A stretch of 64,000 nucleotides of DNA from Pyrinomonadaceae bacterium (GTDB lineage Bacteria > Acidobacteriota > Blastocatellia > Pyrinomonadales > Pyrinomonadaceae): positions 3,257 to 67,256 of the forward strand of contig JBPCPU010000079.1 in assembly GCA_050998795.1 (NCBI GenBank). The letters run 5' to 3'. The notes beneath the pieces are model-generated. The model did not search any database. It was not told where the DNA came from and was given only the letters and a program-made list of their open reading frames with translations. A program made the translations under genes and the position numbers. Numbering within the stretch: the stretch's first letter is position 1; every line of letters starts with the position of its first letter. Positions 2,488 through 54,746 of the stretch are shown here, piece after piece.

Positions 2488-3564
2488 TCATTGATTAAGC
2501 GGAACGACGTAATTTTCGCCGTCCGTAAAACCTTTTAAAGCCTTTTCGGGAATTTCGCGGCTGTGATTTAACATATCGGCGCGGACAATCGCGGCGTTTT
2601 CGTGTTTTTTATTTGCTTTTATTTTTACGCCGTCGGCGATTATCGCATTTGAAATTTGTGCGCCGTCTTCGATTGTTACATCATCCCAAATTACCGAATC
2701 CTTGACGTTTGCGCTTGACGAAATCGAACAATTCGCGCCTTTGAAAACATTTGCGCCGTTCATCATTGCCAGACTGATTTCGAGATAGCGCGGAATTGTC
2801 GAAAGTTCAAACCAGCTTCCTTCGGTAATATGCGCGACAATTTTTTCCCCGTTTCTGATTGCCGGATTGTAAAACGTCGGCACAATGTCCGAATAAACGC
2901 CGCGTGGAATATAGTCAAAAATTCGCGGTTCAAGAATATGAATGCCGGTGAACATCAACGGATTGCGGATTTTGGATTTAAGATTTCGGATTTCGGATTG
3001 CGGATTTTTTTCTGAATCTTGAATCTTGAATCTTGAATCTTGAATCTTGAATCTTGAATCTTGAATCTTGAATCTTGAATCATTTTCAGGAAATTCACCA
3101 AAACCTGTTACCAAATTATCTTTTGTTTCAACTATTGTAAATCTTTCGCGCTTTGAGTTCGGTTTTAGAACCATTGTGGCAAGCGCACCGCTTTTTTTAT
3201 GAGTTTCGAGCGCGGCGGAAATATCAATATCGGTAATGATTTTGCCGTTGACGATGAGAAAGGTTTCATCTTCGAGCAGATGCCGCGCGTTGTCTAATGC
3301 GCCGGCAGTTCCCAAAATCTTCGGCTCTTCAATCGTATAATGAATTTTTACGCCGAAATTTTCGCCGCCTCCAAGTGCTTTTTTGACAGATTCGGGTTGA
3401 TGATGAAGATTAACCACGACATCCGTAAAACCGTATTTGGCAATATATTCGGCAACATAACCGACCAGCGGTTTGCCCAAAAATGGAATTGCCGGTTTGG
3501 TGCGGTCAATTGTTAAAGGAAAAAGCCGTGTGCCGAAACCGGCGGCTAAAATCATTGCTTTCAT
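2488..3564 (-). CDS. Sugar-1-phosphate nucleotidyltransferase with C-terminal left-handed beta-helix domain; carries a repeat-derived 40-aa insert
   Basis: 358 aa. The N-terminus MKAMILAAGFGTRLFPLT is the GxGTRL signature. The C-terminal region is hexapeptide-like (NVKDSVIWDDVTIEDGAQISNAIIADGVKI). The insert ENDSRFKIQDSRFKIQDSRFKIQDSEKNPQSEIRNLKSKIRN sits between GFGEFP and PLMFTGIHILEP. Confidence 0.75.
   Translation of the reverse strand: MKAMILAAGFGTRLFPLTIDRTKPAIPFLGKPLVGYVAEYIAKYGFTDVVVNLHHQPESVKKALGGGENFGVKIHYTIEEPKILGTAGALDNARHLLEDETFLIVNGKIITDIDISAALETHKKSGALATMVLKPNSKRERFTIVETKDNLVTGFGEFPENDSRFKIQDSRFKIQDSRFKIQDSEKNPQSEIRNLKSKIRNPLMFTGIHILEPRIFDYIPRGVYSDIVPTFYNPAIRNGEKIVAHITEGSWFELSTIPRYLEISLAMMNGANVFKGANCSISSSANVKDSVIWDDVTIEDGAQISNAIIADGVKIKANKKHENAAIVRADMLNHSREIPEKALKGFTDGENYVVPLNQ
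2961..3081. repeat. Heptamer-repeat hairpin element inside the nucleotidyltransferase CDS
   Basis: The right arm is 9 full copies of gaatctt plus a partial copy (3014-3081). The left arm is 6 degenerate heptamers, NNggatt/taagatt (2964-3005), roughly reverse-complementary to the right arm. The element is about 120 nt, equal to 40 codons, and is in frame. Confidence 0.85.
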
Positions 3565-3695
3565 ATCTGATTAGCGTTTGTGAAAGGCGGTCTGCGATTA
3601 AGTTTTCAAAATCGCTGTAAAGATAAAACTTACTTTTTTTAAGTTTCAATTGCAAACTTGCCAAAACGGGTTTTGCCGTTAGAATCTGTTGATAG

Positions 3696-4439
3696 ATGCC
3701 AAATTCAGCCGACGAAAAAACTTATGGACTTTTTGATACGCCGCTCAATAAAAAACTTGTCGTTGAATTTGAAAAAAACGCCGCAAATTTTTTTCTGTTT
3801 CCGCCGATTGAAACTGAGAAAATTATTTTAGATGAAGAAAAAAAGGAGCTTTTGAAAGATTTAACGGCTTTTGATTGGATAATTTTTACTGATGTTTTAA
3901 CGGTTGAATACTTTTTGCAGACATTAGGAGAAAATGAGATTGATTTTTTTGAATTGGACGCGGTGCGCGTCTTCGCAGCAGGAGAAGCCGTCGCTGACAG
4001 ATTGCGTTTCGCGCAGATTCACGCCGATTTAATTCCGAACAGCGTTGAAACGAACATTATTTTTTCAGCAATTACCGAATATATTGGCGAAGAAAATTTG
4101 GATGGTTTGAGTTTTCTTTTGGTTGAAGAAAATTCGTTTGATTTAGAAATTGATAAATTATTAGCAGCAAAAAACGCGGAAATAATCGAATTGCCGGTCT
4201 ACCGGACAAAGATTTCCAACAAACAAGAAATCACAAGGTTAAAAACATTACTTAAAGGCGGCGCAATTGACGAGTTTATTTTCTCGTCGCCGGAAGATTT
4301 GATTGCACTCGAGCATTATTTTCCTGACGAATCAATTTCAGAAGTTTTTCCCGAAATAAAAGTTCTGGCGGTTGACGAAAACATCTTTCAAACCTTGAAG
4401 GAAAATAATTTCAAGCCGCATTATTTCTTTTTGAAATGA
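3696..4439 (+). CDS. Uroporphyrinogen-III synthase-like (HemD/HEM4 domain) protein
   Basis: 247 aa. Paired half-domain motifs are typical of HemD: DWIIFTDVLTVEYF, VRVFAAGEAVADRL and DEFIFSSPEDLIAL. Assigned by pattern recognition only. Confidence 0.5.
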   Translation: MPNSADEKTYGLFDTPLNKKLVVEFEKNAANFFLFPPIETEKIILDEEKKELLKDLTAFDWIIFTDVLTVEYFLQTLGENEIDFFELDAVRVFAAGEAVADRLRFAQIHADLIPNSVETNIIFSAITEYIGEENLDGLSFLLVEENSFDLEIDKLLAAKNAEIIELPVYRTKISNKQEITRLKTLLKGGAIDEFIFSSPEDLIALEHYFPDESISEVFPEIKVLAVDENIFQTLKENNFKPHYFFLK

Positions 4440-4495
4440 AGAAATTTAATTTGAAAACTGATAATCTCATATTTTGGACTTTCTCAAAATAGATA

Positions 4496-4629
4496 GTTTG
4501 TTGAGTTCTTAGAGTTTATTGAGTTTATTGAGTTTATTAAGTTGGTTGAGAAATATAACTCAACAAACTCAATAAACTCAATAAACTCAATCAATAAACT
4601 CAATGAACTCAATAAACTCAACAAACTCT
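4496..4629. repeat. 9-mer tandem-repeat hairpin (gagtttatt family), empty loop
   Basis: The left arm is agtttgttgagttcttagagtttattgagtttattgagtttattaagttggttgag. The loop is short (aaatataa). The right arm is ctcaacaaactcaataaactcaataaactcaatcaataaactcaatgaactcaataaactcaacaaactc. The element ends 1 nt before the ATG at 4631. Confidence 0.9.
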
Positions 4630-4630
4630 T

Positions 4631-5995
4631 ATGAATTTAAAGAAGAACGACCGCCGCGAGATTTTCGGCTGGCTGGTTTATGATTGGTCAAATTCAGTTT
4701 TTTTTACAACTGTTGTCGGTGTTTTAATTGGACAATATATTACGACGCTTGCCCAACAAGCGGTTGGTGAAAACGGTGTTGTTCTGAGTTTCGGCGGCTA
4801 TAACTTAGTTACCGCTAAATCGCTTTTTCCTTATTCGGTCGGGCTTTCCGTGTTTCTGCAAATTTTCTTTCTGCCCGTGATGGGCGCAATTGCCGATTAC
4901 ACGCATTTGAAAAAGACCTTTATGGCTTTTTTCTGCTATCTCGGTGCATTTGCGTGTTGTCTTTTATTCTTTGTGCAGGGAAATTTATATGTTCTCGGCT
5001 CGGTCTTTTTCATCGTTGCGAATTTGAGCGCAGGTGCTTCAATCGTCTTTTACAACTCATATCTTTCCGACATTACGACCGAAGATAAACGCGACAAAGT
5101 TTCAAGTTGGGGCTTTGCGGCAGGTTATATCAGCGGCGCGTTAGTTTTATTCGCTAATTTAATTTTTTTGAAATACGCCGAATCTTACGGCATTTCAACC
5201 GGAATGGCAGTCAGAATTTGTATTTTGACGGCGGGAATCTGGTGGGGCGGTTTCGCGCTCATCACTTTTTCATTATTAAAACGACGAAAACCGGCAAGGG
5301 AAGTTCCCGCAGGAAAAAATTATGTTGCGGCAGGCTTCGGAGAATTGATCGAAACATTCCGCGAACTGTTTAAACTCAAACATACTTTAGCTTTTTTGAT
5401 TGCTTACCTGCTTTACAACGATGGAATTCAAACCGTTATTACGAGTTCTTCGATTTTCATTTCTCAGGAACTTTTTATCGCCAGAGGATTGGAAGTTGAT
5501 AACTCGGTGTTGATAATTGCCTTTTTAATTGCCCAAATCGTTGCTTTTATCGGCGCGTTGGTCTTTGAAAGAATCGCATATTTTACCAGTTCAAAAACTG
5601 CAATAATTATTTCGCTCGTAATTTGGTCGGCGATTGTGATTTATGCCTACGGATTTTTAAACACTCTTTCTCAGGCTTATATTATGAGCGGTTTGATTGG
5701 CTTTGTTTTAGGTGGTTCGCAGGCACTTTCGCGTTCGCTGTTTTCCAAGATGATTCCGCACGGGCGCGAATCGGCTTTTTTTGGAATTTATGAAATTTCC
5801 GAGCGCGGAACTTCCTGGATAGGTCCGGTTGTTTTCGGCTTCGTCGCGCAAATGACAAATTCCTATCGTCCGGCAATTCTCGCGTTGATTGTGTTTTTTG
5901 TCGTCGGCAGTTTGATTTTGCTTTTTACGAATACGGACAAAGCAATTCACGAAGCGGGAAATCTGACGCCGACAGAAGAGGCGGACGAAGCGTGA
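4631..5995 (+). CDS. MFS transporter, UMF1 (Atg22-like) family
   Basis: 454 aa and polytopic. The N-terminal EIFGWLVYDWSNSVFFTTVV matches the characteristic YDWxNS motif of UMF1-family MFS proteins. Confidence 0.7.
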   Translation: MNLKKNDRREIFGWLVYDWSNSVFFTTVVGVLIGQYITTLAQQAVGENGVVLSFGGYNLVTAKSLFPYSVGLSVFLQIFFLPVMGAIADYTHLKKTFMAFFCYLGAFACCLLFFVQGNLYVLGSVFFIVANLSAGASIVFYNSYLSDITTEDKRDKVSSWGFAAGYISGALVLFANLIFLKYAESYGISTGMAVRICILTAGIWWGGFALITFSLLKRRKPAREVPAGKNYVAAGFGELIETFRELFKLKHTLAFLIAYLLYNDGIQTVITSSSIFISQELFIARGLEVDNSVLIIAFLIAQIVAFIGALVFERIAYFTSSKTAIIISLVIWSAIVIYAYGFLNTLSQAYIMSGLIGFVLGGSQALSRSLFSKMIPHGRESAFFGIYEISERGTSWIGPVVFGFVAQMTNSYRPAILALIVFFVVGSLILLFTNTDKAIHEAGNLTPTEEADEA

Positions 5996-6061: not shown

Positions 6062-6619
6062 GTGATTGACACAGAAAAAGATAAAATCGTAACAATTTTC
6101 GGCGGTTCACGGTGCGGCGAAAATTCGGCTGAATACCGGCAGGCAAAAGAACTCGGCGGACGACTTGCCGAAGCCGGATTTACAATTTGCACGGGCGGTT
6201 ATCTGGGTGTGATGGAAGCGGCTTCGCGCGGCGCAAGGGAAAAAGGCGGGCGCGTTTTCGGTATTGTGATGAACCAATTTAAATCCGAACCGAATCGTTA
6301 TCTGACCGATAAAGTCGCCACCAATCATTTTTACGGACGGTTGCAGAATTTGATTGAACGCTCGGTCGGATTTGTCGCCATTCGCGGCGGAATGGGAACG
6401 GTTACGGAAATCTCACTCGTTTGGAACAAATTGCAAACCGGCGTGATTGAAAAACGCCCGCTCGTTCTTTTGGGAGATTGTTGGAAACAAGTTGTTGAAT
6501 GTTGGGAAAATAATCTGGTTGTCAGCAAAAATGACCTGGCTTTTCTTGACTTTGCCGACAATGCCGAAGAAGCCTGTAATATAATTATTGAAAAATCAAA
6601 AGGAGTGGTAATTAGTTGA
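6062..6619 (+). CDS. LOG family protein (TIGR00725-like nucleotide phosphoribohydrolase)
   Basis: 185 aa with a GTG start. It has TIFGGSRCGENS...AGFTICTGGYLGVMEAASRGA and RGGMGTVTE (the PGGxGTxxE-type motif). The stop codon lies inside the hairpin at 6611-6683. Confidence 0.7.
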   Translation: MIDTEKDKIVTIFGGSRCGENSAEYRQAKELGGRLAEAGFTICTGGYLGVMEAASRGAREKGGRVFGIVMNQFKSEPNRYLTDKVATNHFYGRLQNLIERSVGFVAIRGGMGTVTEISLVWNKLQTGVIEKRPLVLLGDCWKQVVECWENNLVVSKNDLAFLDFADNAEEACNIIIEKSKGVVIS

Positions 6620-6683
6620 TAGTTGATAAATGAAAGTGTAAGAAAAATTTAACTATCAGTTATCAGTTATCAACTATCAATTG
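6611..6683. repeat. Heptamer-repeat hairpin (agttgat / gttatca)
   Basis: The left arm attagttgatagttgataaatg and right arm aactatcagttatcagttatcaactatcaattg are reverse-complementary. The element lies between the LOG gene and the AIM24 gene. Confidence 0.85.
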
Positions 6684-6688: not shown

Positions 6689-7582
6689 ATGAATTGTCCG
6701 AAATGTAATGCGCCGCTTTTGCCAAACGCTCAATTTTGCGGCTCGTGCGGATTGCAGATGGAAACGCAATCGCCACCGCCGAATTATCAACCGCAATCAA
6801 ATTACGGCAGCCAACAATCTGCGGGTCGCGGAGCATTTAATTTAGACGCGGACGGACGCGGGCAAGGTCGGGGTTACACCTGGGAAATTCAACATCCCGG
6901 TTCATTTGCCTTAGCAATTGTCAACTTGCAAGCCGAACAATCAATATCGGCGGAAGCGGGCGCGATGGTTTCGATGTCGTCAAATGTAGATTTGCATTCG
7001 GAAATGAAGGGCGGCGTTTTCGGCGCGTTAAAACGTGCCGTCGGCGGCGAATCGGCGTTTGTTTCGACCTTTACGGCACGAGGCGGCGCGGGCGAAGTTA
7101 CGCTTGCGCCCGGCGCGCCCGGCGATGTTGTCGGAATTGAAATGAACAATCAAACTTTTATGGTGCAGTCGAGTTCATATTTGGCGGGCGACATCAGTCT
7201 GCAAGTTGAAACGAAATTCGGCGGCGCGAAATCCTGGATTGGCGGCGAAGGTTTATTTCTTCTGCAAGTTACCGGAACGGGTCTTTTGCTTGTTTCATCT
7301 TTTGGCGCGATTCATCGCAAATCTCTGCGGGCGGGCGAACAATATGTTGTTGACACCGGACATCTGGTTGCCTGGGAAGGTCAGATGCAGTATAACACGC
7401 GAAAAGCTGCTAAAAGCGGGTTTTTTAGAAGTTTTTTAAGCGGAGAAGGTTTGGTTGCGGAGTTTTCCGGTCCCGGCGAAATTTTAATTCAAACCCGTAA
7501 TTTGAGAGCATTTGCCGGACTCTTAAAACCTTTTTTTCCATCACAAAGCAGCAGCGGCGGTTTTGATTTTGGAATTAAGTAA
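6689..7582 (+). CDS. AIM24/TIGR00266-family protein with N-terminal zinc ribbon
   Basis: 297 aa. MNCPKCNAPLLPNAQFCGSCG is a CxxC...CxxC zinc ribbon. The body has EVTLAPGAPGDVVGIEM, LLQVTGTGLLLVSSFGAI, VVDTGHLVAWEG and GEGLVAEFSGPGEILIQTRN, typical of the DUF124/AIM24 fold family. Confidence 0.75.
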   Translation: MNCPKCNAPLLPNAQFCGSCGLQMETQSPPPNYQPQSNYGSQQSAGRGAFNLDADGRGQGRGYTWEIQHPGSFALAIVNLQAEQSISAEAGAMVSMSSNVDLHSEMKGGVFGALKRAVGGESAFVSTFTARGGAGEVTLAPGAPGDVVGIEMNNQTFMVQSSSYLAGDISLQVETKFGGAKSWIGGEGLFLLQVTGTGLLLVSSFGAIHRKSLRAGEQYVVDTGHLVAWEGQMQYNTRKAAKSGFFRSFLSGEGLVAEFSGPGEILIQTRNLRAFAGLLKPFFPSQSSSGGFDFGIK

Positions 7583-7625: not shown

Positions 7626-9440
7626 ATGATTGTTTTTAGTGAAGCAATTGAAACCTCACGGTCAAAGAATAAAAGTGTTGAAATAAGGCTCAACGGACGG
7701 GCGGTTTCCAGAGGCGTTGCCATTGGAAAGGTCGTCTGCCTGCACGGTCGCAAACGACAATTTTATCGAATAAATCTGGAAATTTCGCAAATTGAGCGCG
7801 AAATTCGTCGTTTCCGTGCCGCCGTCCGGCTGGCTAAACGTCAATTAAAAAAAATTATTGTCAATAAATCTGAAACAAAAGCCAGCATTTTCGATACCCA
7901 TTTTTTAATTTTTGAAGATAAATCCTTACTTTCCAAAATCGAAGAACATATCAAAACCCGGAAGGTTAATGCGGAATGGGCGGTTAAAATTATCACCGAC
8001 GGTTATATTATCAGCTATAAAAACATTTCCGACGAGCATTTGAGAGAGCGTTATATTGATTTGGAAGATGTTGCCGAACGACTGCAAACGGCTTTGGGCG
8101 GCGGTGGAAAACCAGCTATCCGATTGGAAAAAAATTCAATAATTGTTGCAAAAGAAGTAAAACCTTCAACGCTGATTGAACTGGTCGAAAGCCATCCGCA
8201 AGCAATAATCACCGAAAACGGCGGTTGGACATCGCACACTTTTATCCTGGCGAGAGAGTTGAATTTGCCTTCGATTACGGGCGTTAAAAGAATTTTGCGG
8301 CGTGTTCAAACCGGTGACGAGGTGGTTGTTGATGCTTTTAGCGGGCAGATAATCTTAAACCCGAATGAAATTACTCGTGCAAAGTATAAAGTTGCGACAA
8401 TCGAGTTTGAGCAAAAAAGTTTTGAGAAAGCCGAAGTCGTTAAAGGCAAAACAAAAACGCTCGACGGAAAAATGATAAAAGTTCGTGCCAATCTTGATTT
8501 GCCGAAAGGCTATTCGGAGGCAAAAAGGTTGGGAGTTGACGGCATCGGGCTTTATCGTTCCGAATTTTTGTTTAATCAATATAAAGGATTTCCGACGGAA
8601 AATAAACAAATTGAAGCCTATCGAAAAATCGCTAAATTGGTCGGCGACGAAGGCGTGAGAATTCGCACTTTCGATTTGAGCGTGGAACAATTGTTGGACG
8701 AAACAGAGGAAAAGGAAAAAAACCCCGCCCTCGGATTGCGGGCAATCCGCCTGAGTTTGACTCATTTGCGACAATTTCGCATCCAACTTCGCGCTCTTCT
8801 GCAAGCTGCCGCCGAAAATAATATCAGCGTCGTCTTGCCGATGATTTCCGATGTTGCCGAAATTTTGCGGACAAAAAAAATTTTGGAACGCGAAAAACAA
8901 AGACTGCGAAAAAAGAAAATCGAGTTTGGAGATTTACGACTCGGCGCGATGATAGAAGTTCCTTCGGCGATTTTGACGATTGACGAAATCGCCGCCGAAA
9001 GTGATTTTTTATGTTTGGGAACAAACGACCTGGTGCAGTATTTATTGGCAGTTGACCGCGATAACGAAACGGTTGCCGATTGGTTCCGCACCCTTCATCC
9101 GTCGGTTTTGCGCTCAATAAAAATAGTTGTCAAAGCGGCTGAAAATGCGGAAATTCCGGTTATCGTTTGCGGCGAAATGGCTGGTTCACCGCTTTATGTG
9201 CCGATTTTAATCGGACTTGGCGTAACCGAATTGAGTATGAACATTAATTCAATCCCGCGTGTTAAAAAAATTATCTCCCACATCGCCTTTGAAGAAGCGC
9301 ACGAAATTGTAAAAAAATTAGAAGATTGTAAGACTCACGATGAAACTGAAAATCTGGTTTATAAGTTATTTTCAGAAAAATGGTCGCATTTATTTCCCGC
9401 TTCCATCGTGCCTCCAAAAATAAAACAGGGCAAAATATAA
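7626..9440 (+). CDS. ptsI: Phosphoenolpyruvate-protein phosphotransferase (PTS enzyme I family)
   Basis: 604 aa. It has the phosphohistidine region ENGGWTSHTFILARELNLPSI and a C-terminal PEP-utilising TIM barrel (GIGLYRSEFLF, LGTNDLVQYLLAVDRDN, VCGEMAG). Confidence 0.85.
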   Translation: MIVFSEAIETSRSKNKSVEIRLNGRAVSRGVAIGKVVCLHGRKRQFYRINLEISQIEREIRRFRAAVRLAKRQLKKIIVNKSETKASIFDTHFLIFEDKSLLSKIEEHIKTRKVNAEWAVKIITDGYIISYKNISDEHLRERYIDLEDVAERLQTALGGGGKPAIRLEKNSIIVAKEVKPSTLIELVESHPQAIITENGGWTSHTFILARELNLPSITGVKRILRRVQTGDEVVVDAFSGQIILNPNEITRAKYKVATIEFEQKSFEKAEVVKGKTKTLDGKMIKVRANLDLPKGYSEAKRLGVDGIGLYRSEFLFNQYKGFPTENKQIEAYRKIAKLVGDEGVRIRTFDLSVEQLLDETEEKEKNPALGLRAIRLSLTHLRQFRIQLRALLQAAAENNISVVLPMISDVAEILRTKKILEREKQRLRKKKIEFGDLRLGAMIEVPSAILTIDEIAAESDFLCLGTNDLVQYLLAVDRDNETVADWFRTLHPSVLRSIKIVVKAAENAEIPVIVCGEMAGSPLYVPILIGLGVTELSMNINSIPRVKKIISHIAFEEAHEIVKKLEDCKTHDETENLVYKLFSEKWSHLFPASIVPPKIKQGKI

Positions 9441-9615: not shown

Positions 9616-10677
9616 ATGAATAAAACTTTGCTAAAAAACATTGTCTTTACCTGTCTGTTGGTTAGTTTTGCAGCAGTCGGTGATAATTTTGCCCAAACTC
9701 AATCAGAACCTGTCAAACAGGTAAATTTTCGATATTCTCAAAATCCGAAAACGAAATCTAAAACTGAAAATCAAAAATCTACTGCTAATGCGCCAAAAAT
9801 TAATTCTACATTAAAAAGTGTTGAAGAAAATTTAGCTGATAATGAAACAAAACAAAACACTGATTTTGAAAGTCGTTCAGTCGCCGCTAAAACCCTTGAA
9901 GTTGCCAAACGCGCCAACACGGTTGCGGTTTCGCCCACCGAAGTTTATAAAATCGGAATCGGTGATGTTTTGTTAATCAGTTTGCAAAACGCGCCGGGCA
10001 AAGCCGCAAACTATTTTACGGTTTTAACCGACGGGACAATTGATTATCCATTGGCGGGCGAAATGGTTTCGATTCAAGGTTTAACCGCCGAAGAAGCCGA
10101 AGATTTATTAAAGGAAAAGATAAAACTTTATGAAAACCCGCAAGTTGTCGTAAAAGTGCGCGAATTCGCCAGTCACACTTTTACCGTTCTCGGATTGGTA
10201 GAAAAAGCGGGTGAAAAATTTTTGCAGCGCGAAGCAATGCCGTTGTATGTTATACGCGCCGAAGCAATTGTTCAGCCGCGAGCAACCGCCGCATTTATCA
10301 AACGCGCCAATGCGGAAACCGAAAAAATTAATCTCAATGACCCGAAATCAGATGATATATTGATTTTTCCGGGTGATATTGTCGAATTTAAATCTATTGA
10401 AACCGATACCGTCAACGGTCAAACTCCGCAATTCTACTACATCGGCGGCAATGTCAATTCAGGCGGTAAAAAAGACTTTCATCAGGGAATTACGTTGACG
10501 CAGGCGATTTTGGCTTGCGGCGGTTTGCGAAGATCTAATGTAAAAAAGGTCGTTTTGCGGCGCAAAAATCAAGAAGGTTTGCTTTCGCCTTTGGAATTTG
10601 ATTTGAATGCTATTAAAAACGGCAACCAACCTGACCCGATTTTGCAGGCGGGCGATACGATTGAGATTGGGAATTAG
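9616..10677 (+). CDS. Polysaccharide export protein (Wza-like, Poly_export + SLBB domains), orphan copy
   Basis: 353 aa with a signal peptide. YKIGIGDVLLISL...DGTIDYPLAGEMVSIQGLT is the Poly_export motif, and the C-terminal GDTIEI is SLBB-like. Confidence 0.7.
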   Translation: MNKTLLKNIVFTCLLVSFAAVGDNFAQTQSEPVKQVNFRYSQNPKTKSKTENQKSTANAPKINSTLKSVEENLADNETKQNTDFESRSVAAKTLEVAKRANTVAVSPTEVYKIGIGDVLLISLQNAPGKAANYFTVLTDGTIDYPLAGEMVSIQGLTAEEAEDLLKEKIKLYENPQVVVKVREFASHTFTVLGLVEKAGEKFLQREAMPLYVIRAEAIVQPRATAAFIKRANAETEKINLNDPKSDDILIFPGDIVEFKSIETDTVNGQTPQFYYIGGNVNSGGKKDFHQGITLTQAILACGGLRRSNVKKVVLRRKNQEGLLSPLEFDLNAIKNGNQPDPILQAGDTIEIGN

Positions 10678-10720
10678 TTTATTGAGTTTGTTGAGTTTAT
10701 TGAGTTTGTTGAGTTTATTA
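10676..10720. repeat. Tandem 9-mers (gagtttatt/gagtttgtt), left flank of the four-helix-bundle gene
   Basis: About five alternating 9-mer units start at the stop codon of the Wza-like gene. They are the approximate reverse complement of the array at 11113-11142. Confidence 0.85.
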
Positions 10721-10742
10721 CATCAAGAAAAAAGAAAAGAAT

Positions 10743-11111
10743 ATGACAACTTTCAAAAAATTTGAAGGTATTCAAGCGTGGCAAAAGGCTCGACAAGCGA
10801 CAAAAAAGATCTATGAAATTACGAAAAACAAAAATTTTGCGAGAGATTTTGGTTTGTCCGACCAAATTCGACGTGCTTCAGTTTCGGTTATGTCAAACAT
10901 AGCGGAGGGAAACGGAAGAAAAACAAACAAAGACTTTGCAAATTTCCTGGTTATTTCACACGGTTCGGCGGCTGAGGTACAGTGCCAATTATATGTAGCT
11001 CTTGATTTAGATTATGTCAGTAGACAAGAATTTTCTGAGATTTATCAATTATTTGACGAGGTTTCACGGATGACAATGGCTCTTTGCCAACATCTTCTTA
11101 AAACTTCTTAA
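10743..11111 (+). CDS. Four-helix-bundle protein (23S rRNA intervening-sequence protein / Avd-like family)
   Basis: 122 aa. FEGIQAWQKARQATKKIYEIT...LSDQIRRASVSVMSNIAEGNGRKTNKDFANFLVISHGSAAEVQCQLYVALDLDYV is the canonical pattern of this family. Confidence 0.9.
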   Translation: MTTFKKFEGIQAWQKARQATKKIYEITKNKNFARDFGLSDQIRRASVSVMSNIAEGNGRKTNKDFANFLVISHGSAAEVQCQLYVALDLDYVSRQEFSEIYQLFDEVSRMTMALCQHLLKTS

Positions 11112-11112
11112 T

Positions 11113-11142
11113 CTCAAAAAACTCAAAAAACTCAAAAAACTC
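11113..11142. repeat. Tandem 9-mers (ctcaaaaaa x3 + ctc), right flank of the four-helix-bundle gene
   Basis: The array starts 2 nt after the stop codon. It is complementary to gagtttatt/gagtttgtt at 8 of 9 positions per unit. Confidence 0.85.
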
Positions 11143-11200
11143 TACAAACCTAAATTGTAAATGTTGAACATTTTTTGTTAAGATATTTAAGCCTTGCAGA

Positions 11201-11608
11201 GGAACAAGTTGGGCAGTCGCTTTTACATCAAAAATAAAAGAGGAAAGTCCGAACACCGAAGGGCAGCGAGCCGGATAACATCCGGGCGTTTGATTTAAAT
11301 ATCGGACGACGACAAGTGCAACAGAGAACAGACCAGCCGAAAGGTGATGGGTGAAACGGTGCGGTTCAGAAATGAACTTAAAGTAAGAGCGCACCAGCGC
11401 GTTTGGTAACAAGCGCGGCTAGGCAAACTCCTCGCGGTGCAAGACCAAATAGGAAAACGCTTTTTAATTGAATTGCCCGTTCAAAAGTTCGGAGAAATCC
11501 GAACGGCGTTTTCGGGTAGGTCGCTCGAGCTGTTTGGCAACAAACAGCCTAGATGAATGATTGCCGTCTGTTTTTACAGATACAAAACTCGGCTTACAGA
11601 CTTGTTCC
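11201..11608 (+). ncRNA. rnpB: RNase P RNA, bacterial type A
   Basis: The 5' ggaacaagttgggcagtcgc pairs with the 3' acagacttgttcc (P1). Conserved GAGGAAAGTCCGAACACC (P4 5' strand) and ACAAAACTCGGCTTACAG (P4 3' strand) are present, with gggtgaaacggtg and gtaagagcgcaccagc in the specificity domain. Confidence 0.9.
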
Positions 11609-11664
11609 AAATGCCTGGCTTTTTATAAATTTTTATTTGAATCGAAGGAGTAGACAAATTTTTT

Positions 11665-12763: not shown

Positions 12764-13057
12764 ATGACAAAATTGTTAATTTTACTTATTTTGCTTTTGG
12801 TCGTGGCTTCGATGATTGCTTTGCGTTATCGCCGCCAAATCCAAACCGCGCTGTATGTTTGGCGAATGTTTAGAAAAATGCGTCAAATGGATAAACCTCA
12901 GGAAAAACAAATCGAGAAAAAAGAAAATGCAAAAGATGTCCAACTTATCAGATGTGCGAAATGCGGAACTTGGATTCCGCAAAAAAACGCTCTGAATTTG
13001 CGTTCAAAAGCGTTTTATTGTTCGACAAATTGTATGGAAAATGCGGTTGCGAGATAA
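12764..13057 (+). CDS. Small membrane protein with C-terminal Cys4 zinc-binding motif (PP0621-like)
   Basis: 97 aa. It has an N-terminal TM helix and a C-terminal CAKCGTWIP...FYCSTNC motif. Confidence 0.5.
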   Translation: MTKLLILLILLLVVASMIALRYRRQIQTALYVWRMFRKMRQMDKPQEKQIEKKENAKDVQLIRCAKCGTWIPQKNALNLRSKAFYCSTNCMENAVAR

Positions 13058-13127
13058 TTCAAGATTTAAGATTCCAAATCCATTCCTCAATCTTAAATCT
13101 TAAATCTTGAATCTTAAATCTTGAATC
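13057..13127. repeat. Heptamer-repeat hairpin (aagattt / aatctta, aatcttg) between convergent genes
   Basis: attcaagatttaagattc ... caatcttaaatcttaaatcttgaatcttaaatcttgaat. It uses the same unit family as the intragenic element at 2961-3081. Both convergent stop codons (13055-13057 and 13126-13128) abut its ends. Confidence 0.85.
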
Positions 13128-14022: not shown

Positions 14023-14146
14023 TAAGACCTCGATAAAAGATAGGAATTTGCCGAGAAAAGTCGGAGGGACAAAGAGATGTTTCAAACATCTCTTTTTTAT
14101 CATAACTTTTTAAGGCGGAAAGTAAAGGAAAAAATTATTCTCAAAT

Positions 14147-40701: not shown

Positions 40702-40735
40702 AGTAAAAAAACTTTAACTGATTTTAGATAAACAG

Positions 40736-41859: not shown

Positions 41860-41904
41860 TGAATCGTAAATAGTAAATAGTGAATAGAAAAGCCAAATCT
41901 ATTC
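41860..41904. repeat. Heptamer tandem repeat (gtgaatc gtaaata gtaaata gtgaata) plus small hairpin
   Basis: It starts right after the stop codon of the HldC-GmhA gene. gaatag ... ctattc forms a short stem. Confidence 0.7.
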
Positions 41905-47536: not shown

Positions 47537-47582
47537 AAATAAAAAATAAAACTTTTTTCAATAATTGCAAAAAATAATAAAT

Positions 47583-48683
47583 ATGAAAATAATGACTATT
47601 TTCGGGACGCGACCGGAAATCATCAGATTGAGTCATCTGATGAAGATACTTGACCAATACTGTGAACAAATTACGGTTCATACCGGGCAAAACTATCACG
47701 AAAGTTTGAGCGATATTTTTTTAAAAGAGTTGGAAGTTCGCCCGCCGGACATTCATTTTGGAATAAAATCAAGTAGTTTCGGCGAGCAAATCGGACAAAT
47801 TTTAACAAAAACCGACGAAGTTTTGGTTAAGCATAAGCCCGACAAGGTTTTAATTTTGGGAGATACAAATAGCGCTCTGTCGGCAATTATCGCGGCACGA
47901 CGGGGAATTCCCGTATTTCATATGGAAGCGGGAAATCGCTGTTTTGACAATCGCGTGCCGGAGGAAGTCAACCGGCGAATTATTGACCATTCAAGCACGA
48001 TTTTGCTGCCATATACCGAAAGAAGCAGGGAAAATTTGATTGATGAAGGCATTGAGCGGGAAAGAATTTACGTAACCGGAAATCCAATCAAGGAAGTATT
48101 GGATATTCACAGTGAAAAAATAGAAGCTAGTGATTCTTTGAACTCGTTTAATGTCAAACCGTTTGAGTATTTTCTGGTAACGCTGCACCGGGCGGAAAAT
48201 GTCGATTTGCCGGACAGACTACGGCAAATCTTTGACGGATTTAATAAGGTTGCGGAAAAATTCGACAAAAAAATATTGATTAGCCTTCATCCGCGCACCG
48301 CCGAAAAGCTGGAAAAATTCGGTTTCAAACCCGCTTCCGAGAAAATAAAATTACTTGCACCGTTAGGTTTTTTTGATTTTGTAAAATTGGAAAAAAACGC
48401 CTTAGCCGTGTTGACCGACAGCGGCACCGTGCAGGAGGAATGTGCTATTTTCGGCGTGCCGAATATCACCTTACGCGATGTAACCGAACGCCCGGAAACG
48501 ATTGAAGCGGGCAGTAATATTCTCAGTGGAGCAAAAACCGACTCGATTTTACGGGCGGTTGAATTAGCAATTTCGCAGCCGACTAATTGGACTGCTCCGA
48601 GAGAATATCTGGTGGAAAATGTCGCCCAAACAGTTAGTAAAATCGTTTTGGGATATACGAGTTTGAGAAAACACGGCAGTTAA
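47583..48683 (+). CDS. UDP-N-acetylglucosamine 2-epimerase (non-hydrolysing family; WecB/FnlC/WbjD-like)
   Basis: KIMTIFGTRPEIIRLSHL, LILGDTNSAL, HMEAGNRCFD...PEEVNRRIIDH and TDSGTVQEECAIFGVPNITLRDVTERPE are present. The start is ATG 47583, or TTG 47565. Confidence 0.85.
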   Translation: MKIMTIFGTRPEIIRLSHLMKILDQYCEQITVHTGQNYHESLSDIFLKELEVRPPDIHFGIKSSSFGEQIGQILTKTDEVLVKHKPDKVLILGDTNSALSAIIAARRGIPVFHMEAGNRCFDNRVPEEVNRRIIDHSSTILLPYTERSRENLIDEGIERERIYVTGNPIKEVLDIHSEKIEASDSLNSFNVKPFEYFLVTLHRAENVDLPDRLRQIFDGFNKVAEKFDKKILISLHPRTAEKLEKFGFKPASEKIKLLAPLGFFDFVKLEKNALAVLTDSGTVQEECAIFGVPNITLRDVTERPETIEAGSNILSGAKTDSILRAVELAISQPTNWTAPREYLVENVAQTVSKIVLGYTSLRKHGS

Positions 48684-48690
48684 AAACGTA

Positions 48691-48722
48691 TTCATTCAGA
48701 TTCATTCAGATTCATTCAGATT
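48691..48722. repeat. Tandem 10-mer (ttcattcaga x3)
   Basis: Three perfect copies plus tt lie between the epimerase stop and the next glycosyltransferase start. Confidence 0.9.
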
Positions 48723-48743
48723 ATAGCTTTGCAGGAAAGGGAA

Positions 48744-49988
48744 ATGGATAAAGGCGAAAAGCGCAAAAATAAAATCCGAAATCGCCTTTGGGTCGTCACG
48801 GAACTTTATTATCCCGAAAATAATCAGACGGGTTATTATATGACGGGAATTGCCGAAGGGCTGACGGCAAAATATGACGTTAAAGTAATTTGCGGGCAGC
48901 CGAATTACGCGGCACGCGGCACCCGCGCACCGAAAAAGGATTTTCACAAAGGCGTGGAAATTTTTCGGGTCCGGAGTACGACTCTGAATAAGGATGTGTT
49001 GGCTTTTCGGCTTTTGAATATGCTTACGCAGGGAGCGTCAATTTTTGTTAAATCTTTGTTAAAGTTCAACAAATATGACAGCGTTTTAGTGGTTTCCGCT
49101 CCGCCGACATTACCGTTCGTGACGGCTTTAGCGGCAAAACTTCGCCGCGCCGAATACACTCTGGTTATCCAGGATAAATATCCCGAAACATTGATTGCGG
49201 TCGGCAAATTAAAAGCCGATTCGATTTTTATAAAACTGTTGAACCGGCTTAATAATTGGCTTTATGACGGAGCCAAAAAAATCATTGTGGTCGGGCGCGA
49301 TATGCGCGAACTGGTTAATTCTCAATTAAACCACCATTCGACACGGCAAACGCCGATTGATGTAATTCAAAATTGGGCTTCATTAGAGGAAGTTGAACCG
49401 ACTTCGCGTCGTGAAAACCGGCTTTTACAGGATTTGGGACTTTTGGATAAATTCGTCTTCCTCTATGCGGGAAATATGGGACATCCGCAGGACATCGAAA
49501 GCATTGTCGAATGTGCAAAAAAATTAAAAGACGACGGGCGATTTCATTTTTTATTTATCGGTTCGGGAGTTAAAAGAAAATGGCTCGAACGGGAAGTGAG
49601 AGATAATAAACTGACCAATGTAACAGTTCTCGAACCGCGCCCGCGCACCGACCAGAAGTTATTTTTAAATGCCTGTGACGTCGGTTTAGTTCCGCTCGTC
49701 AAAAAAATGCGCGGCGTGGCAATGCCGAGCCGAACATATAATATATTGGCGGCAGGAAAGCCGGTTTTGGCTTTAACGGAAAATGATTCGGAAGTGGCGC
49801 AAGTTATTGAAGATGACCGGGTTGGCTGGTATGTTCCGCCGGGTGAGCCGGAAAAACTGCTGCAAATGATTTATAAAATTTACGAAGAGCGCAGTGAAAT
49901 CCCCGAAATGGAAATAAGGGCGAGAAATTCGGCGCTCCAAAAACACTCTTTAGAAGTTGCCGTCGGAAAATACCGGAAATCAATTTAG
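48744..49988 (+). CDS. Glycosyltransferase family 4, WbuB/WbjE-like
   Basis: RLWVVTELYYPENNQTGYYM is the N-terminus typical of WbuB-type GTs, followed by GNMGHPQD. The position after a 2-epimerase matches fnl/wbj clusters. ATG 48744 is preferred over TTG 48729. Confidence 0.7.
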   Translation: MDKGEKRKNKIRNRLWVVTELYYPENNQTGYYMTGIAEGLTAKYDVKVICGQPNYAARGTRAPKKDFHKGVEIFRVRSTTLNKDVLAFRLLNMLTQGASIFVKSLLKFNKYDSVLVVSAPPTLPFVTALAAKLRRAEYTLVIQDKYPETLIAVGKLKADSIFIKLLNRLNNWLYDGAKKIIVVGRDMRELVNSQLNHHSTRQTPIDVIQNWASLEEVEPTSRRENRLLQDLGLLDKFVFLYAGNMGHPQDIESIVECAKKLKDDGRFHFLFIGSGVKRKWLEREVRDNKLTNVTVLEPRPRTDQKLFLNACDVGLVPLVKKMRGVAMPSRTYNILAAGKPVLALTENDSEVAQVIEDDRVGWYVPPGEPEKLLQMIYKIYEERSEIPEMEIRARNSALQKHSLEVAVGKYRKSI

Positions 49989-52832: not shown

Positions 52833-52882
52833 GGGTCAGGAATAGAAGTTTGATAAAGATTTATAAATTTTTAACCGGGTAA

Positions 52883-53716
52883 ATGACAGATTCTGAAAAA
52901 AATATCAGAGAAGAAATAGACGTTATAAAGTGGCGGGATAGATTTGCCTTTGAGTGTGGCGGAATAAAAGTCGGTGTTAAAATAAATGATTTAAATGTTA
53001 AGTCGAAATTAAAAAAGGTTTTACCCGTTGCCAGTCGGGAAATTGATTTTGGCGAGGCTGATGAAATTTTAATGCTCGTGGTCGGGGAGAACAGACGGGT
53101 CAACGGATTATATTATAAATATGAACTGATACATCAATTCGATGATTGCAATGACGCGCTTTTGAATTTAATCGGCGATAAAATACTAATGTTTTTGGCG
53201 TTAATATCCCTGCCTCGGATATTATACCTGCACGCCGGCGCCGTTAGTTGGAATAATACGGGAATTATTCTGCCGGGCGGTTCGTTCAGCGGCAAAACGA
53301 CGCTGGTTAAAGAATTTATCAAAGCCGGCGCCGATTATATTACCGACGATTTGACGTTGTTAGATATTCGAGGGAATATACTGCCATTCCCGCGCGCTCT
53401 GGCAATCAGGACAAAAAGAGGCAGAGAAATTAAAACGGCTGATTGTTTCGGGGCGAAAACGGTTGCGGAGAATGTCAAACTCAAACTGATTCTTTTCACC
53501 GAGTTTGAAGAGAATGCGCGTTGGAAGCCGGAAATTTTACCGCCCGGACAAGCAGTTCTGAGGTTGATGAACAATTTCTATTATAAACCGTCGGTCAGAG
53601 AAGCGCCGATGCAAATCCTCAGGACTTTAGCCGGAATTACGGACGGAATAAAAATATATGCGGGCAAAAGAGGCAACGCTAAAAGTGTGATAAATTGGGT
53701 GGTGAAAAACTTTTAA
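52883..53716 (+). CDS. HPr kinase-like P-loop kinase (HprK-related kinase)
   Basis: 277 aa. LHAGAVSWNNTGIILPGGSFSGKTTLVKEFIKAGADYITDDLTLLD matches the HprK C-terminal domain pattern (H-x-G-x-V...G-x-S-G-x-GK-S/T...DD). Confidence 0.7.
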   Translation: MTDSEKNIREEIDVIKWRDRFAFECGGIKVGVKINDLNVKSKLKKVLPVASREIDFGEADEILMLVVGENRRVNGLYYKYELIHQFDDCNDALLNLIGDKILMFLALISLPRILYLHAGAVSWNNTGIILPGGSFSGKTTLVKEFIKAGADYITDDLTLLDIRGNILPFPRALAIRTKRGREIKTADCFGAKTVAENVKLKLILFTEFEENARWKPEILPPGQAVLRLMNNFYYKPSVREAPMQILRTLAGITDGIKIYAGKRGNAKSVINWVVKNF

Positions 53717-53732
53717 TTTCCGGCAGGAATAT

Positions 53733-54722
53733 TTGATGAACCAGGCGGACGATAATTTTTTTCAAAATACTGCAGCCAACCGTGTCGGCACAGTCCGGGC
53801 GTCGGCTGAAATTTATCAAATGCTCATGTTTAAGGTATATGAGAAAAAGCTCCAAAATATATGGAAGCATTTTGAAGACAGTCAAATCGAGCCGATTTTG
53901 ATAAAAGGCTGGTCTGCCGCGATTAATTATCCGCAGCCTTTCCTGCGTCAACTGGGAGATTTTGATTTGGCGGTAAATCCCAATTGTTTCGACAAAGCAG
54001 AGAAATTACAGAAGCATTCGGACTTGCGCGAAGTTGATTTACATAAAGGATTAAGGCATCTGGATACGGTCGGTTGGGATGATTTGGCGAAGAATTCGGT
54101 TTTGGTAAAATGCGGCGAAGTTAGTATTAGAGTTTTAAGACCGGAAGATCATTTACGTGTCTTGTGCGTGCATTGGTTGAACGACGGCGGTAGAGAAAAG
54201 GAAAAATTGTGGGATATTTTTTATGCGGTCAAAAGCCGCCCCGCCGATTTTGATTGGGAGAGGTGTTTGGGAGTTGTCAGCGAAAGGCGAAAAAAATGGA
54301 TAATTTACGCCATCGGGCTGACTCACAGGTATTTCGGACTGGAGATTGAAGATAATCCGGTTGCTCAAGCGGCAAAAAAATTGCCTCGATGGTTAATAAA
54401 AGCAGTCGAAAATGAATGGAATAATCCGGTTGAATTTAAATATCTGCAAACATGTCTGCGGAACAGAAAAGAATTTTTCAAACAATTACGAAAAAGATTT
54501 CCTCCCAATCCAATCCAGGCAACCATTGAGATGGAAGGTGATCTGGATAGCCATAAAAGAATTTTTTATCAAATTGGCGACTTTTTCTTGAGATTTCTGC
54601 CTTCAGTGCGAAGAATCTTAAAAGTTGCCGCTAATAATGGAAAATGGAAAATGGAAAATGAAAACAATGGAAAATGGATAGTATTTTATCTTTCACATTA
54701 TCCATTATCCATTATCCGTTGA
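53733..54722 (+). CDS. Uncharacterised nucleotidyltransferase family protein (PF14907-like)
   Basis: 329 aa. ILIKGWSAAINYPQPFLRQLGDFDLAVNP matches the K-G...Y...R...GD-x-D-L pattern of that family. The last roughly 30 residues (NNGKWKMENENNGKWIVFYLSHYPLSIIR) are read from the repeat element at 54633-54746. Confidence 0.6.
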   Translation: MMNQADDNFFQNTAANRVGTVRASAEIYQMLMFKVYEKKLQNIWKHFEDSQIEPILIKGWSAAINYPQPFLRQLGDFDLAVNPNCFDKAEKLQKHSDLREVDLHKGLRHLDTVGWDDLAKNSVLVKCGEVSIRVLRPEDHLRVLCVHWLNDGGREKEKLWDIFYAVKSRPADFDWERCLGVVSERRKKWIIYAIGLTHRYFGLEIEDNPVAQAAKKLPRWLIKAVENEWNNPVEFKYLQTCLRNRKEFFKQLRKRFPPNPIQATIEMEGDLDSHKRIFYQIGDFFLRFLPSVRRILKVAANNGKWKMENENNGKWIVFYLSHYPLSIIR

Positions 54723-54746
54723 TTTCATTTATCCGTTGATTTCATT
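54633..54746. repeat. Heptamer-repeat hairpin (aaaatgg / ttatcca) plus 17-nt direct duplication
   Basis: The left arm is aataatggaaaatggaaaatggaaaatgaaaacaatggaaaatggatag and the right arm is ttatccattatccattatccgttgatttcatt tatccgttgatttcatt. It overlaps the 3' end of the nucleotidyltransferase CDS. Confidence 0.8.

Follow-up and report, generated by a model that had tools for sequence, protein, structure and literature searches.

Inverted arrays of short tandem units form hairpins between acidobacterial genes and bracket PF05635 genes in five bacterial phyla

Introduction

Where do long hairpins come from when both arms consist of one short unit repeated in tandem and the unit changes from locus to locus? 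This question is raised by a 64,000-nt stretch of DNA from a Pyrinomonadaceae bacterium (Acidobacteriota; assembly GCA_050998795.1, contig JBPCPU010000079.1, positions 3,257-67,256 of the forward strand), which was analyzed as a whole and is called the window below. An earlier note on this DNA had listed eleven loci at which a left arm of 7- or 9-nt units is followed by a loop and a right arm of reverse-complement units, and had likened them to the short tandemly repeated repetitive (STRR) sequences of cyanobacteria. As causes it had proposed a period-specific generating mechanism or a structure-specific protein or RNase; both are possible.

The heptamer repeats of the STRR type were reportedly described in cyanobacteria by Mazel and colleagues in 1990. 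Their canonical units, CCCCAGT, TTGGTCA and CAACAGT, are found in heterocystous cyanobacteria, and for decades STRRs have served as markers in fingerprinting. To our knowledge, their origin is unexplained.

A second group of elements with stem-forming ends is the intervening sequences (IVSs) of rRNA genes, named members of which, with or without an open reading frame (ORF) of the S23p/PF05635 type, come from Leptospira, Coxiella, Salmonella and alpha-proteobacteria. According to the IVS literature, RNase III excises these sequences at their terminal stems, and the suspicion that IVS ends are relics of mobile elements is an old one (PMC2743711). In the Coxiella IVS, two to three tandem GACAGAT heptamers lie at the cleavage site (5′ end), and their number varies among strains (PMC4990558). 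Here we propose that the window loci are stem-loops of this structural class, that is, inverted short-unit arrays placed around either a short loop or a gene for the PF05635 "23S rRNA intervening-sequence protein" (called IVP here), a classification that in our judgement could go either way.

Results

Period-7 hairpins fill gene boundaries in the window

Tandem arrays were identified with Tandem Repeats Finder (TRF), those with a score of at least 40 were counted, and 50 dinucleotide-preserving shuffles of the window served as control. Ten period-7 arrays were found against a shuffle mean of 0, and six period-9 arrays against a mean of 0.18; a shuffle comparison was among the checks that the earlier note had proposed, and the arrays that it had reported, of periods 7 and 9, were recovered where it had placed them. 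Arm pairing was assessed by an inverted-repeat search and stability by RNA folding z-scores (z; RNAfold). The window contained nine stable hairpins with periodic arms, seven with period 7 and two with period 9, and in all nine the terminal inverted repeats paired into a long enclosing stem. Hairpin geometry was thus retained at nine of the eleven loci listed before, and was lost at 2959-3081, which proved to be an in-frame coding insertion, and at 41857-41891, a lone array. The paired arrays had arms of 18-45 nt and loops of 8-56 nt, close to the 8-60 nt previously given, except at the locus reported as 10676-11142, whose arms, at 10676-10719 and 11113-11142, lie 391 nt apart around a PF05635 ORF. 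The eight short-loop hairpins are the following.

4495-4629, plus strand: 9-nt-unit hairpin without an ORF, (GAGTTTATT)n, 8-nt loop, (AATAAACTC)n (TRF period 9)
6611-6683, plus strand: heptamer hairpin AGTTGAT / ATCAACT (TRF, inverted repeat, z −5.6)
13050-13133, strand unassigned: heptamer hairpin AAGATTT/AAGATTC, then GAATCTT/AAATCTT (z −6.7 on the plus strand, −8.5 on the minus strand)
17684-17765, minus strand: heptamer hairpin in the tRNA-Gly(GCC)/tRNA-Cys(GCA) spacer (31-nt arms, 90% complementary, z −7)
23431-23594, strand unassigned: composite hairpin with an outer non-periodic stem (GAAGCCTGTGCAAATTA...) and an inner heptamer stem at 23457-23550 (GATAGAT/GATAACT/GATAGCT)
27331-27457, plus strand: heptamer hairpin GGTGAGT GGCGAGT GATGAGT, right arm in mirror order with an extra CTTATCA, 56-nt loop
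43004-43166, plus strand: composite hairpin with an outer stem and an inner heptamer stem at 43038-43122 (ATTCGCT/GTTCGCT, then AGCGAAC/AGCGAAT)
54633-54746, plus strand: heptamer hairpin (AAAATGG)n, then CCATTAT/CCGTTGA... (z −4.5 on the plus strand, −2.7 on the minus strand)

Fold z-scores at these eight loci ranged from −4.5 to −13. The arms at 4495-4629 were 33-45 nt long and 82-94% complementary (folding free energy −61 kcal/mol, z −12), and the hairpins at 23431-23594 (−73 kcal/mol, z −13), 27331-27457 (−57.6 kcal/mol, z −10.6) and 43004-43166 (z −9.4 on the plus and −11.1 on the minus strand) were also stable. The minus-strand fold of 27331-27457 showed a 7-nt bulge, in exact agreement with the single extra heptamer that had been noticed in its right arm (27419-27457). 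The window loci recurred in independent assemblies, being identical in two (L001 and L118) and 97-99% identical in two others (L085 and L117), indicating that they are not assembly artefacts; together with the shuffles, this rules out chance or misassembly as an explanation.

Entire intergenic spacers were occupied by these hairpins, from stop to stop or from stop to start codon. The hairpin at 6611-6683 takes up the full spacer of genes 6062-6619 and 6689-7582, with the upstream stop codon inside its left arm, and that at 13050-13133 fills the space between the stop codons of the convergent genes 12764-13057 and 13126-14103. The 4495-4629 element, identical in L001, ends 2 nt ahead of the ATG of gene 4631-5995, and 27331-27457 begins at the stop codon of gene 24853-27333 and stops 10 nt short of the ATG of gene 27468-28475. 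At the last hairpin (54633-54746), the final 30 codons of ORF 53733-54722 lie within the element, whose end is 9 nt short of the ATG of gene 54756-55454. Proteins can acquire in-frame peptide repeats or extended C termini from hairpins that overlap stop or start codons in this way. Of the two composite hairpins, one separates the divergent mutS (20679-23369, minus strand) and gene 23781-24842, and the other lies between genes 41974-42957 and 43195-44208. The G-rich, C-poor arm came first in six of the seven window loci that could be oriented, 43004-43166 being the only one with the pyrimidine-rich arm upstream. Strand asymmetry from G·U pairs was also considered as a pointer to the functional strand and was dropped, as the loci disagreed.

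The units were less locus-specific than the earlier note had them: the GAGTTTATT unit was present at two loci, an AAGATTC-type unit likewise at two (one of which, 2959-3081, is no true hairpin), and the unit of the tRNA spacer persists in many relatives. Loci with the same unit aligned only within their arrays, with similarity ending at the array edges, so that common flanks or loops were rejected. When a single consensus was sought, the heptamer hairpins had none in common, whereas the two 9-mer loci shared one. No window hairpin matched Rfam at gathering thresholds. Rfam also detected no rRNA in the window, so no window element sits in helix 9, 25 or 45 of 23S rRNA.

Relatives were collected by a metagenome scan with a neighbouring conserved protein, yielding 80 further loci at 52-89% identity. 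A hairpin census with an ungapped inverted-repeat finder (arms of at least 18 nt) then covered the window and 83 loci, 826 kb in all, and returned 69 hairpins compared with 9 in a block-shuffled control. Periodic arms were present in 39 of the 69, with period 7 in 36, period 8 in two and period 9 in one. The window was much denser in such hairpins, with eight in 64 kb, than the relatives, which had about eight in 760 kb when the tRNA-spacer site is set aside. The hairpins are therefore real, far above chance, dominated by period 7, common in the Pyrinomonadaceae lineage and lineage-specific in density.

A PF05635 gene lies between 9-mer arms

The locus with the wide loop contains an ORF that the earlier note had overlooked, along with the 23S rRNA intervening sequence as a possible relative. 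Its parts, and the gene that follows, are as follows.

10675-10719, plus strand: upstream (5′) arm, (GAGTTTATT GAGTTTGTT)×2.5 (TRF period 9/18, score 74-88)
10743-11111, plus strand: cargo ORF of 122 aa, four-helix-bundle / 23S rRNA intervening-sequence protein, Avd-like (Pfam PF05635)
11109-11150, plus strand: downstream (3′) arm, (CTCAAAAAA)×3 + CTCTACAAAC (TRF period 9, score 60; inverted repeats)
11201-11612: RNase P RNA gene (Rfam, 268 bits)

The ORF matched PF05635 (E 7.6e-38), TIGR02436 (E 3.7e-35) and PDB 2GSC (E 2e-15). The upstream arm begins at the stop codon of gene 9616-10677, and the downstream arm starts at the stop codon of the cargo ORF, about 50 nt upstream of the RNase P RNA gene; the neighbours of the cassette are thus a polysaccharide-export gene on one side and the RNase P RNA gene on the other. 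The two arrays paired around the ORF in the minimum free energy fold of 10668-11160, and the flank complementarity reached z 15-17. The whole cassette was missing from the orthologous site of L002, a locus from a complete metagenome-assembled chromosome (OZ244558.1) that is syntenic with window positions 1465-22428 at about 80% protein identity. Given this position of the cassette and its absence from L002, the RNase P RNA may be co-transcribed with, and released from, the cassette.

The family is very large, with more than 3,000 close homologues of the window protein and PDB structures without assigned function. PF05635 proteins are structural homologues of Avd, the pentameric four-helix-bundle accessory protein of diversity-generating retroelements, and have no known catalytic activity (PMC10053308). 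The likeness of the window protein to Avd lies in the PF05635 homology and the 2GSC match; in contrast, no reverse transcriptase, template or variable repeat was found near the window gene.

IVP genes of other Acidobacteria, at 63-95% identity and in at least five unrelated gene contexts, were all accompanied by inverted GAGTTnnTT / AAnnAACTC 9-mer arrays. Because these arrays occurred at every sampled acidobacterial IVP gene, the 9-mer arrays are arms of a gene cassette, and the view that the 9-mer loci belong to a family without shared sequence has to be given up. Alignment showed that the unit of the 4495-4629 hairpin equals that of the cassette arms at 10675-11150, so that 4495-4629 is an ORF-less version with the same unit.

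In the 97.4% identical strain L085, the left arm of the cassette was longer by 18 nt, that is, by two units. The IVP ORF of this strain (L085 1656-2023) had a 1-nt deletion in an A-run and was called as a product of 110 aa with a later start. Its arms were intact and longer, and the ORF is possibly decaying while the stem is kept, as has been proposed for Coxiella.

Inverted short-period arrays flank PF05635 genes in five phyla

IVP homologues beyond the clade were sought by tblastn against plasmids, which returned mostly Nostoc, Calothrix and Anabaena, and also Riemerella, Azospirillum and Gemmatirosa. Complementary flanks (z of at least 5) were present in 17 of 19 independent PF05635 contexts from Acidobacteriota, Cyanobacteriota, Bacteroidota, Gemmatimonadota and Proteobacteria. 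The flanks had period 7 in ten contexts, period 9 in four (Acidobacteria) and period 8 in one, and the upstream arm had more G than C in 17/17. Among other ORFs in acidobacterial loci, 1 of 234 had a comparable flank score, and that pair was non-periodic. Arms outside the Acidobacteria were as follows.

Nostoc ATCC 53789 (L103) and Geminocystis (L109): upstream (GGGAAAA)n, downstream (TTTTCCC)n
Anabaena sp. 90 (L105): upstream (GGTGACA)n, downstream (TGTCACC)n
N. punctiforme (L107) and Nostoc C052 (L116): upstream (AGGAGTC)n, downstream (GACTCCT)n
N. edaphicum (L114): upstream (GTAGGGA)×8, downstream (TCCCTAC)×5
Calothrix brevissima (L115): upstream (GGGTGTA)n, downstream (CTACACC)n
Riemerella (L111): upstream (GGTTTAA)n, downstream (ACCTTAA/ACCTTGA)n
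Gemmatirosa (L112), period 8: upstream (AGGGCAGG)n, downstream (CTCCTGCC)n
Azospirillum lipoferum (L110): upstream (GAGGACG/GATGACA)n, downstream (CCGTCCT/CTGTCAT)n

Rfam confirms the Azospirillum locus as a true 23S rRNA IVS (large-subunit rRNA model LSU, 491 bits). The same periodic inverted arms therefore bracket PF05635 genes in five phyla, a true 23S rRNA IVS included. The closest solved structure to the window IVP is XCC0516 of Xanthomonas campestris (PDB 2GSC), and the X. campestris IVP gene lies between accB and accC with GGGAATC-type arrays on its flanks. In three genomes, those of the window, Xanthomonas and Gemmatirosa, the same arms occur both with and without an ORF. A scan of viral contigs with an IVP alignment produced one locus only (L091), with weak flank complementarity (z about 3).

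Several of these loci had further features. Directly upstream of the Gemmatirosa plasmid cassette, at L112 245-341, is an ORF-less period-8 hairpin (AGGGCAGG... / ...CTCCTGCG) whose unit is that of the cassette's downstream arm; Rfam at its E-value threshold matched this hairpin only to miRNA-precursor models, reflecting shape alone. In a Pseudanabaena plasmid (L104) and the Anabaena sp. 90 plasmid (L105), a CRISPR-Cas operon (CRISPR, clustered short palindromic repeats with regular interspacing) contains the PF05635 gene between its cas6 and cas4 genes, and the arrays immediately beside the L104 gene, (AAAAGCT)×16 and (AAAAGCC)×10, are in direct orientation. Stanieria (L113) and Nostoc PCC 7120 (L108), from different cyanobacterial orders, have in common a duplicated leader, ACTTCAAACTT ×2, before the ATG and a downstream (CTTCTGC/CCTCTGC)n array. 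In Nostoc PCC 7120 an ISL3 transposase gene is directly upstream, where the missing arm would be expected.

Hairpins come and go between species and change by whole units between strains

Comparison of relatives for unit number and for presence or absence, as the earlier note had proposed, revealed both kinds of difference. In L002 the genes orthologous to those around 6611-6683 overlap (ATGA) and leave no spacer, and those at the 13050 site abut without a hairpin. Conversely, L002 has a heptamer hairpin of its own at 8367-8489, where the window has none. Hairpins thus appear and disappear at gene boundaries between species. In L117 (98.7% identical), the left arm of the 13050 hairpin was longer by 14 nt, and L119 had other unit variants. 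Differences of whole or double units between near-identical strains (+14 nt here and +18 nt in the L085 cassette) indicate replication slippage.

Another discontinuity with L002 concerns a 758-aa ORF (15162-17438) beside the tRNA pair, which had no counterpart at the syntenic L002 position. An insertion or deletion specific to one lineage accounts for it, and L005, a closer relative, likewise loses synteny at this point.

The tRNA-Gly/tRNA-Cys spacer keeps period and pairing as the unit drifts

Both tRNAs were found together at 50 loci, 34 of which had a short spacer (61-99 nt). A period-7 stem was present in 29 of these 34 (median stem 26.5 bp, median z −7.4). The units differed by lineage (AAAGGCG/AAAGGAG/AAAGGAT, GGATGAA/GGATGAG, GAACGNN, AAAAGNT or GGCAGTN), each time with the complement in the opposite arm; in the window transcript, the 5′ arm reads AAAGGAT AAAGGCG AAAGGAG .... 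Since both arms changed together at one orthologous site, pairing must have been maintained by selection or by arm-to-arm copying. Period and pairing were kept at this spacer across deep divergence while the unit drifted. Together with the 36 of 39 periodic census hairpins that had period 7, this upholds the proposal that period and architecture are conserved and sequence is not.

Sixteen relatives (e.g. L012, L020, L021 and L067) had an alternative long spacer of 120-173 nt, with a G+C-rich hairpin (GAAGCGACGC...GCGTCGCTTC) and then a second hairpin whose 3′ arm is (AAAATCN)n, so that heptamer arrays recur even in the other spacer type. In the minus-strand transcript of 17684-17765, the 5′ units AAAGGAG/AAAGGCG resemble a Shine-Dalgarno sequence and the 3′ arm CCUUUCUCCUUUC resembles the 3′ end of 16S rRNA; the purine-rich upstream arm of IVP cassettes likewise adjoins a start codon. 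To judge from the motifs, these likenesses may be coincidental or may bear on ribosome binding.

Arrays and palindromes outside the periodic hairpins

Two of the loci listed in the earlier note contain arrays without a proper hairpin.

2959-3081, minus strand: adjacent arrays (CGGATTT)×7 + (TGAATCT)×10 in coding sequence (continuous ORF 2488-3564)
41857-41891, plus strand: lone array GTAAATA/GTGAATA ×5 (TRF score 42)

The first lies within the NTP_transferase domain (residues 2-266) of the nucleotidyltransferase gene 2488-3564 and amounts to 30 additional codons, in frame, relative to the L002 ortholog, which retains only (GGATTTC)×4.7. The arrays have no stop codon on the sense strand and are therefore translated in frame. 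They are about 4/7 Watson-Crick complementary and folded on the antisense (plus) strand only, via G·U pairs (z −5.7; sense strand z −0.9). This locus has related repeat dynamics and no true sense-strand hairpin. The array at 41857-41891 is directly 3′ of the stop codon of gene 40843-41859 and lacks a complementary arm (z −0.8 and −2.0).

Tandem arrays without an inverted counterpart also occur at 48690-48722, as (ATTCATTCAG)×3.3 between genes 47565-48683 and 48729-49988, and at 56000-56070, as an A-rich (AAAAAAGRG)n tract after gene 55475-55990. Some arrays in this genome are thus located outside hairpins. Conversely, a palindrome of about 90 nt without periodicity (GACTTTCTCAAAAATGC...GCATTTTTGAGAAAGTC) is present in two copies, at 39007-39096 and about 40734-40815, one on each side of gene 39166-40701. 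With arms of 34-39 nt and z of −7 to −9, it is a second type of hairpin repeat, defined by sequence and not by period.

Discussion

Relation to known repeat systems

The window elements are a variant, in a new phylum, of known kinds: IVSs, STRRs and the heptamer pairs of Xanthomonas. With IVSs they share long terminal inverted repeats, paired as a stem that encloses a loop or a PF05635 ORF, and a sporadic distribution among relatives; the Azospirillum IVS has arms made of heptamer arrays, and 10675-11150 has the same parts as an IVS. They differ in lying outside rRNA, between protein genes, between two tRNAs or beside the RNase P RNA gene, and in that most have no ORF. Short ORF-less IVSs also exist in rRNA, so an internal PF05635 ORF does not decide membership. 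RNase III excision, documented for IVSs, would apply here by analogy, and a periodic make-up of the stem is not given as a general IVS feature in the literature searched.

The likeness to STRRs lies in tandem heptanucleotide arrays, intergenic position, a genome of about 40% G+C, many units and an unexplained origin. It has proved apt in a further respect, as inverted heptamer arrays of the STRR type flank PF05635 genes in Nostoc, Anabaena and Calothrix, and also in Geminocystis and Stanieria. Unlike the window elements, STRRs belong to another phylum and have other units, none of the TRF consensus sequences of the window being equal to a canonical STRR unit. By definition STRRs are also single arrays with a small set of canonical units, whereas an inverted pair is the rule in the window; few of the Nostoc GGGGAYT heptamers are reported as inverted pairs either (PMC4692102).

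Inverted pairs of heptamer arrays in intergenic DNA are already known from Xanthomonas, where GGGAATC heptamers occupy 186 loci, including 70 convergent pairs, with 70-75 pairs per genome (Rehm et al. 2015, PMC4692102). As in the window, the arrays are intergenic and often form convergent pairs, and their length differs among species with the gene context unchanged. The difference is that Xanthomonas has one G-rich unit genome-wide, read as forming G-quadruplexes, and the window has many units. A G-quadruplex reading was rejected for the latter, as AGTTGAT, AAAGGCG, GGTGAGT, GATAGAT, AAAATGG, AGCGAAC, AAGATTC and GAGTTTATT contain no GGG run. The link of the Xanthomonas repeats to PF05635 is not noted by Rehm et al. 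What is new here is the cross-phylum link between inverted short-period arrays and PF05635 genes: a literature search of incomplete coverage, which may have missed an earlier description, returned no paper giving periodic inverted arrays as a general PF05635 feature.

Repetitive extragenic palindromic sequences (REPs), bacterial interspersed mosaic elements (BIMEs) and transposable elements of the miniature inverted-repeat kind (MITEs) are likewise small, palindromic, intergenic elements at gene ends that vary among strains and have possible roles in mRNA stability or processing. They have a family consensus (MITEs also terminal inverted repeats and target-site duplications), whereas the heptamer hairpins have only period and shape in common. 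The three comparisons failed for separate reasons. The hairpins have no common palindrome of about 35 nt, and no REP-associated tyrosine transposase was seen, although none was searched for systematically; same-unit loci lack the consensus and target-site duplication of MITEs and align only in their arrays; and a CRISPR array would not have head-to-tail units without spacers and a second, inverted array. The lack of a common consensus, of target-site duplications and of a CRISPR-like layout means that REP, MITE and CRISPR do not fit, as the earlier note had held.

A stem-loop class that may be cut at the RNA level

If the window loci are stem-loops of the IVS class, transcription of the host operon would allow the arms to pair as a double-stranded RNA stem of 18-45 bp, long enough in principle for RNase III. 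By analogy with the IVS literature, RNase III would cut this stem, separating the flanking RNAs (mRNAs, tRNAs or RNase P RNA) and freeing the loop or the IVP mRNA. With cutting at the RNA level, an insertion at a gene boundary would do almost no harm and would at times be useful as a processing site. The heptamer hairpins and the cassette would fall into one element class, and heptamer hairpins without an ORF could be either reduced cassette derivatives or the substrate in which an IVP gene settles. A periodic stem would tolerate insertions and deletions, since after a slip by whole units the arms can pair again in another register, and periodic arms would also allow fast stem lengthening.

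Several results weigh against this classification. IVP genes are rare in the clade, with a single one in the roughly 840 kb sampled. A search of the window and of the 80 loci of relatives (about 760 kb) brought up no other IVP gene or remnant, and tblastn detected no IVP remnant in the loops of the other eight window hairpins, which are 8-56 nt long and ORF-less. The heptamer hairpins share no sequence with the single IVP cassette of the window, whose arms are 9-mers, and the tRNA-spacer hairpin occurs in relatives whose sampled loci yielded no IVP gene. Because IVP genes are rare and the spacer hairpin stands without one nearby, slippage and selection on the stem could yield heptamer hairpins alone. 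No target-site duplication was visible at insertion points relative to L002, and no transposase, recombinase or other mobility enzyme was found for the hairpins. The strand asymmetry of folding energy was inconsistent, with 43004 folding better on the antisense strand and 13050 not assignable to a strand. In the cross-phylum comparison, the arrays next to the L104 ORF are directly oriented, with an inverted pair further out, and L108 and L091 had no clear flank complementarity. The flank control consisted of acidobacterial loci, so that cyanobacterial genomes, themselves rich in heptamer arrays, are outside it.

Alternative explanations

On the chief alternative account, the hairpins arise purely in situ as stem-loops of the host. 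Ordinary intergenic hairpins, which protect RNA 3′ ends or serve as processing sites, would lengthen through replication slippage that favours 7-nt steps, selection would keep the arms complementary, PF05635 genes would simply tend to lodge or be retained in the loops, and IVS-type elements would have no part in the heptamer hairpins. We consider this less probable than membership in the IVS class and still a serious contender. It explains well the diversity of units from locus to locus and the tRNA-spacer hairpin, which has been vertically inherited over 52-89% protein identity with drifting units. Whole-unit differences between close strains and the growth of heptamer arrays in a coding region (2959-3081) agree with it, and in one relative (L026) just one of the arms has four perfect CGCCTTT units, which suggests that each arm expanded on its own. 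The reported excess of heptamer simple-sequence repeats in many bacteria, which has been attributed to the polymerase footprint (Mrazek 2007, as cited in PMC4692102), also speaks for it. The explanation fares less well with complete hairpins of 70-80 nt at sites where the relative's genes overlap or abut and no slippage seed is obvious, although precise loss in L002 is an alternative. It also meets difficulty in the same 9-mer at two loci 6 kb apart, one with an IVP gene and one without, and the strong, oriented association of arrays with PF05635 genes (17/19 contexts) would need a further explanation.

A bolder extension of the IVS reading, which we advance as speculation and think somewhat less probable again, is that PF05635 proteins are the trans-acting part of one selfish class of periodic stems that comprises rRNA IVSs, STRR-type arrays, the Xanthomonas GGGAATC pairs and the window hairpins. 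The protein would bind its own unit and help to create, extend or copy arrays, for example by templated slippage or fold-back synthesis, much as Avd aids a polymerase in diversity-generating retroelements, and the ORF-less hairpins would be its non-autonomous progeny.

That the hairpins are non-autonomous, MITE-like DNA elements, derived from PF05635 cassettes by loss of the ORF and mobilized in trans by IVP or a host hairpin-specific enzyme, appears unlikely. Versions with and without cargo on the same arms (4495-4629 versus 10675-11150 in the window, as well as in Xanthomonas and Gemmatirosa L112) would be expected of such elements, as would the cassette with GAGTT-type arms in at least five unrelated acidobacterial gene contexts, the leader, downstream arm and ORF shared by Stanieria and Nostoc PCC 7120, and the presence/absence differences from L002. 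Yet among the heptamer hairpins there is no target-site duplication, transposase, recombinase or common consensus, the similarity of same-unit loci ends at the array edges, and PF05635 proteins are without known catalytic activity (PMC10053308).

Ordinary Rho-independent terminators or attenuators are very improbable: several hairpins do directly follow stop codons (10675, 13050, 27331, 41857 and 54633), but on direct reading none is followed by a U-tract, the stems are A+T-rich and at 25-45 bp far beyond terminator length, three (4495-4629, 6611-6683 and 27331-27457) abut the next start codon in same-strand gene runs, one lies between two tRNAs, and the genome has a canonical terminator elsewhere (56468-56495).

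Implications

Membership of the window hairpins in the IVS class would extend the IVS concept, in which insertion is harmless through excision at the RNA level, to operons, tRNA clusters and the RNase P RNA. If PF05635 proteins do act in trans on their own units, the origin of heptamer repeats in bacteria would be accounted for, and so would the function of a very large orphan family. Through the link of inverted arrays to PF05635 genes, and the arms that ORF-less hairpins can share with these cassettes, the two puzzles become one hypothesis, which is approachable in Xanthomonas, Nostoc and Coxiella.

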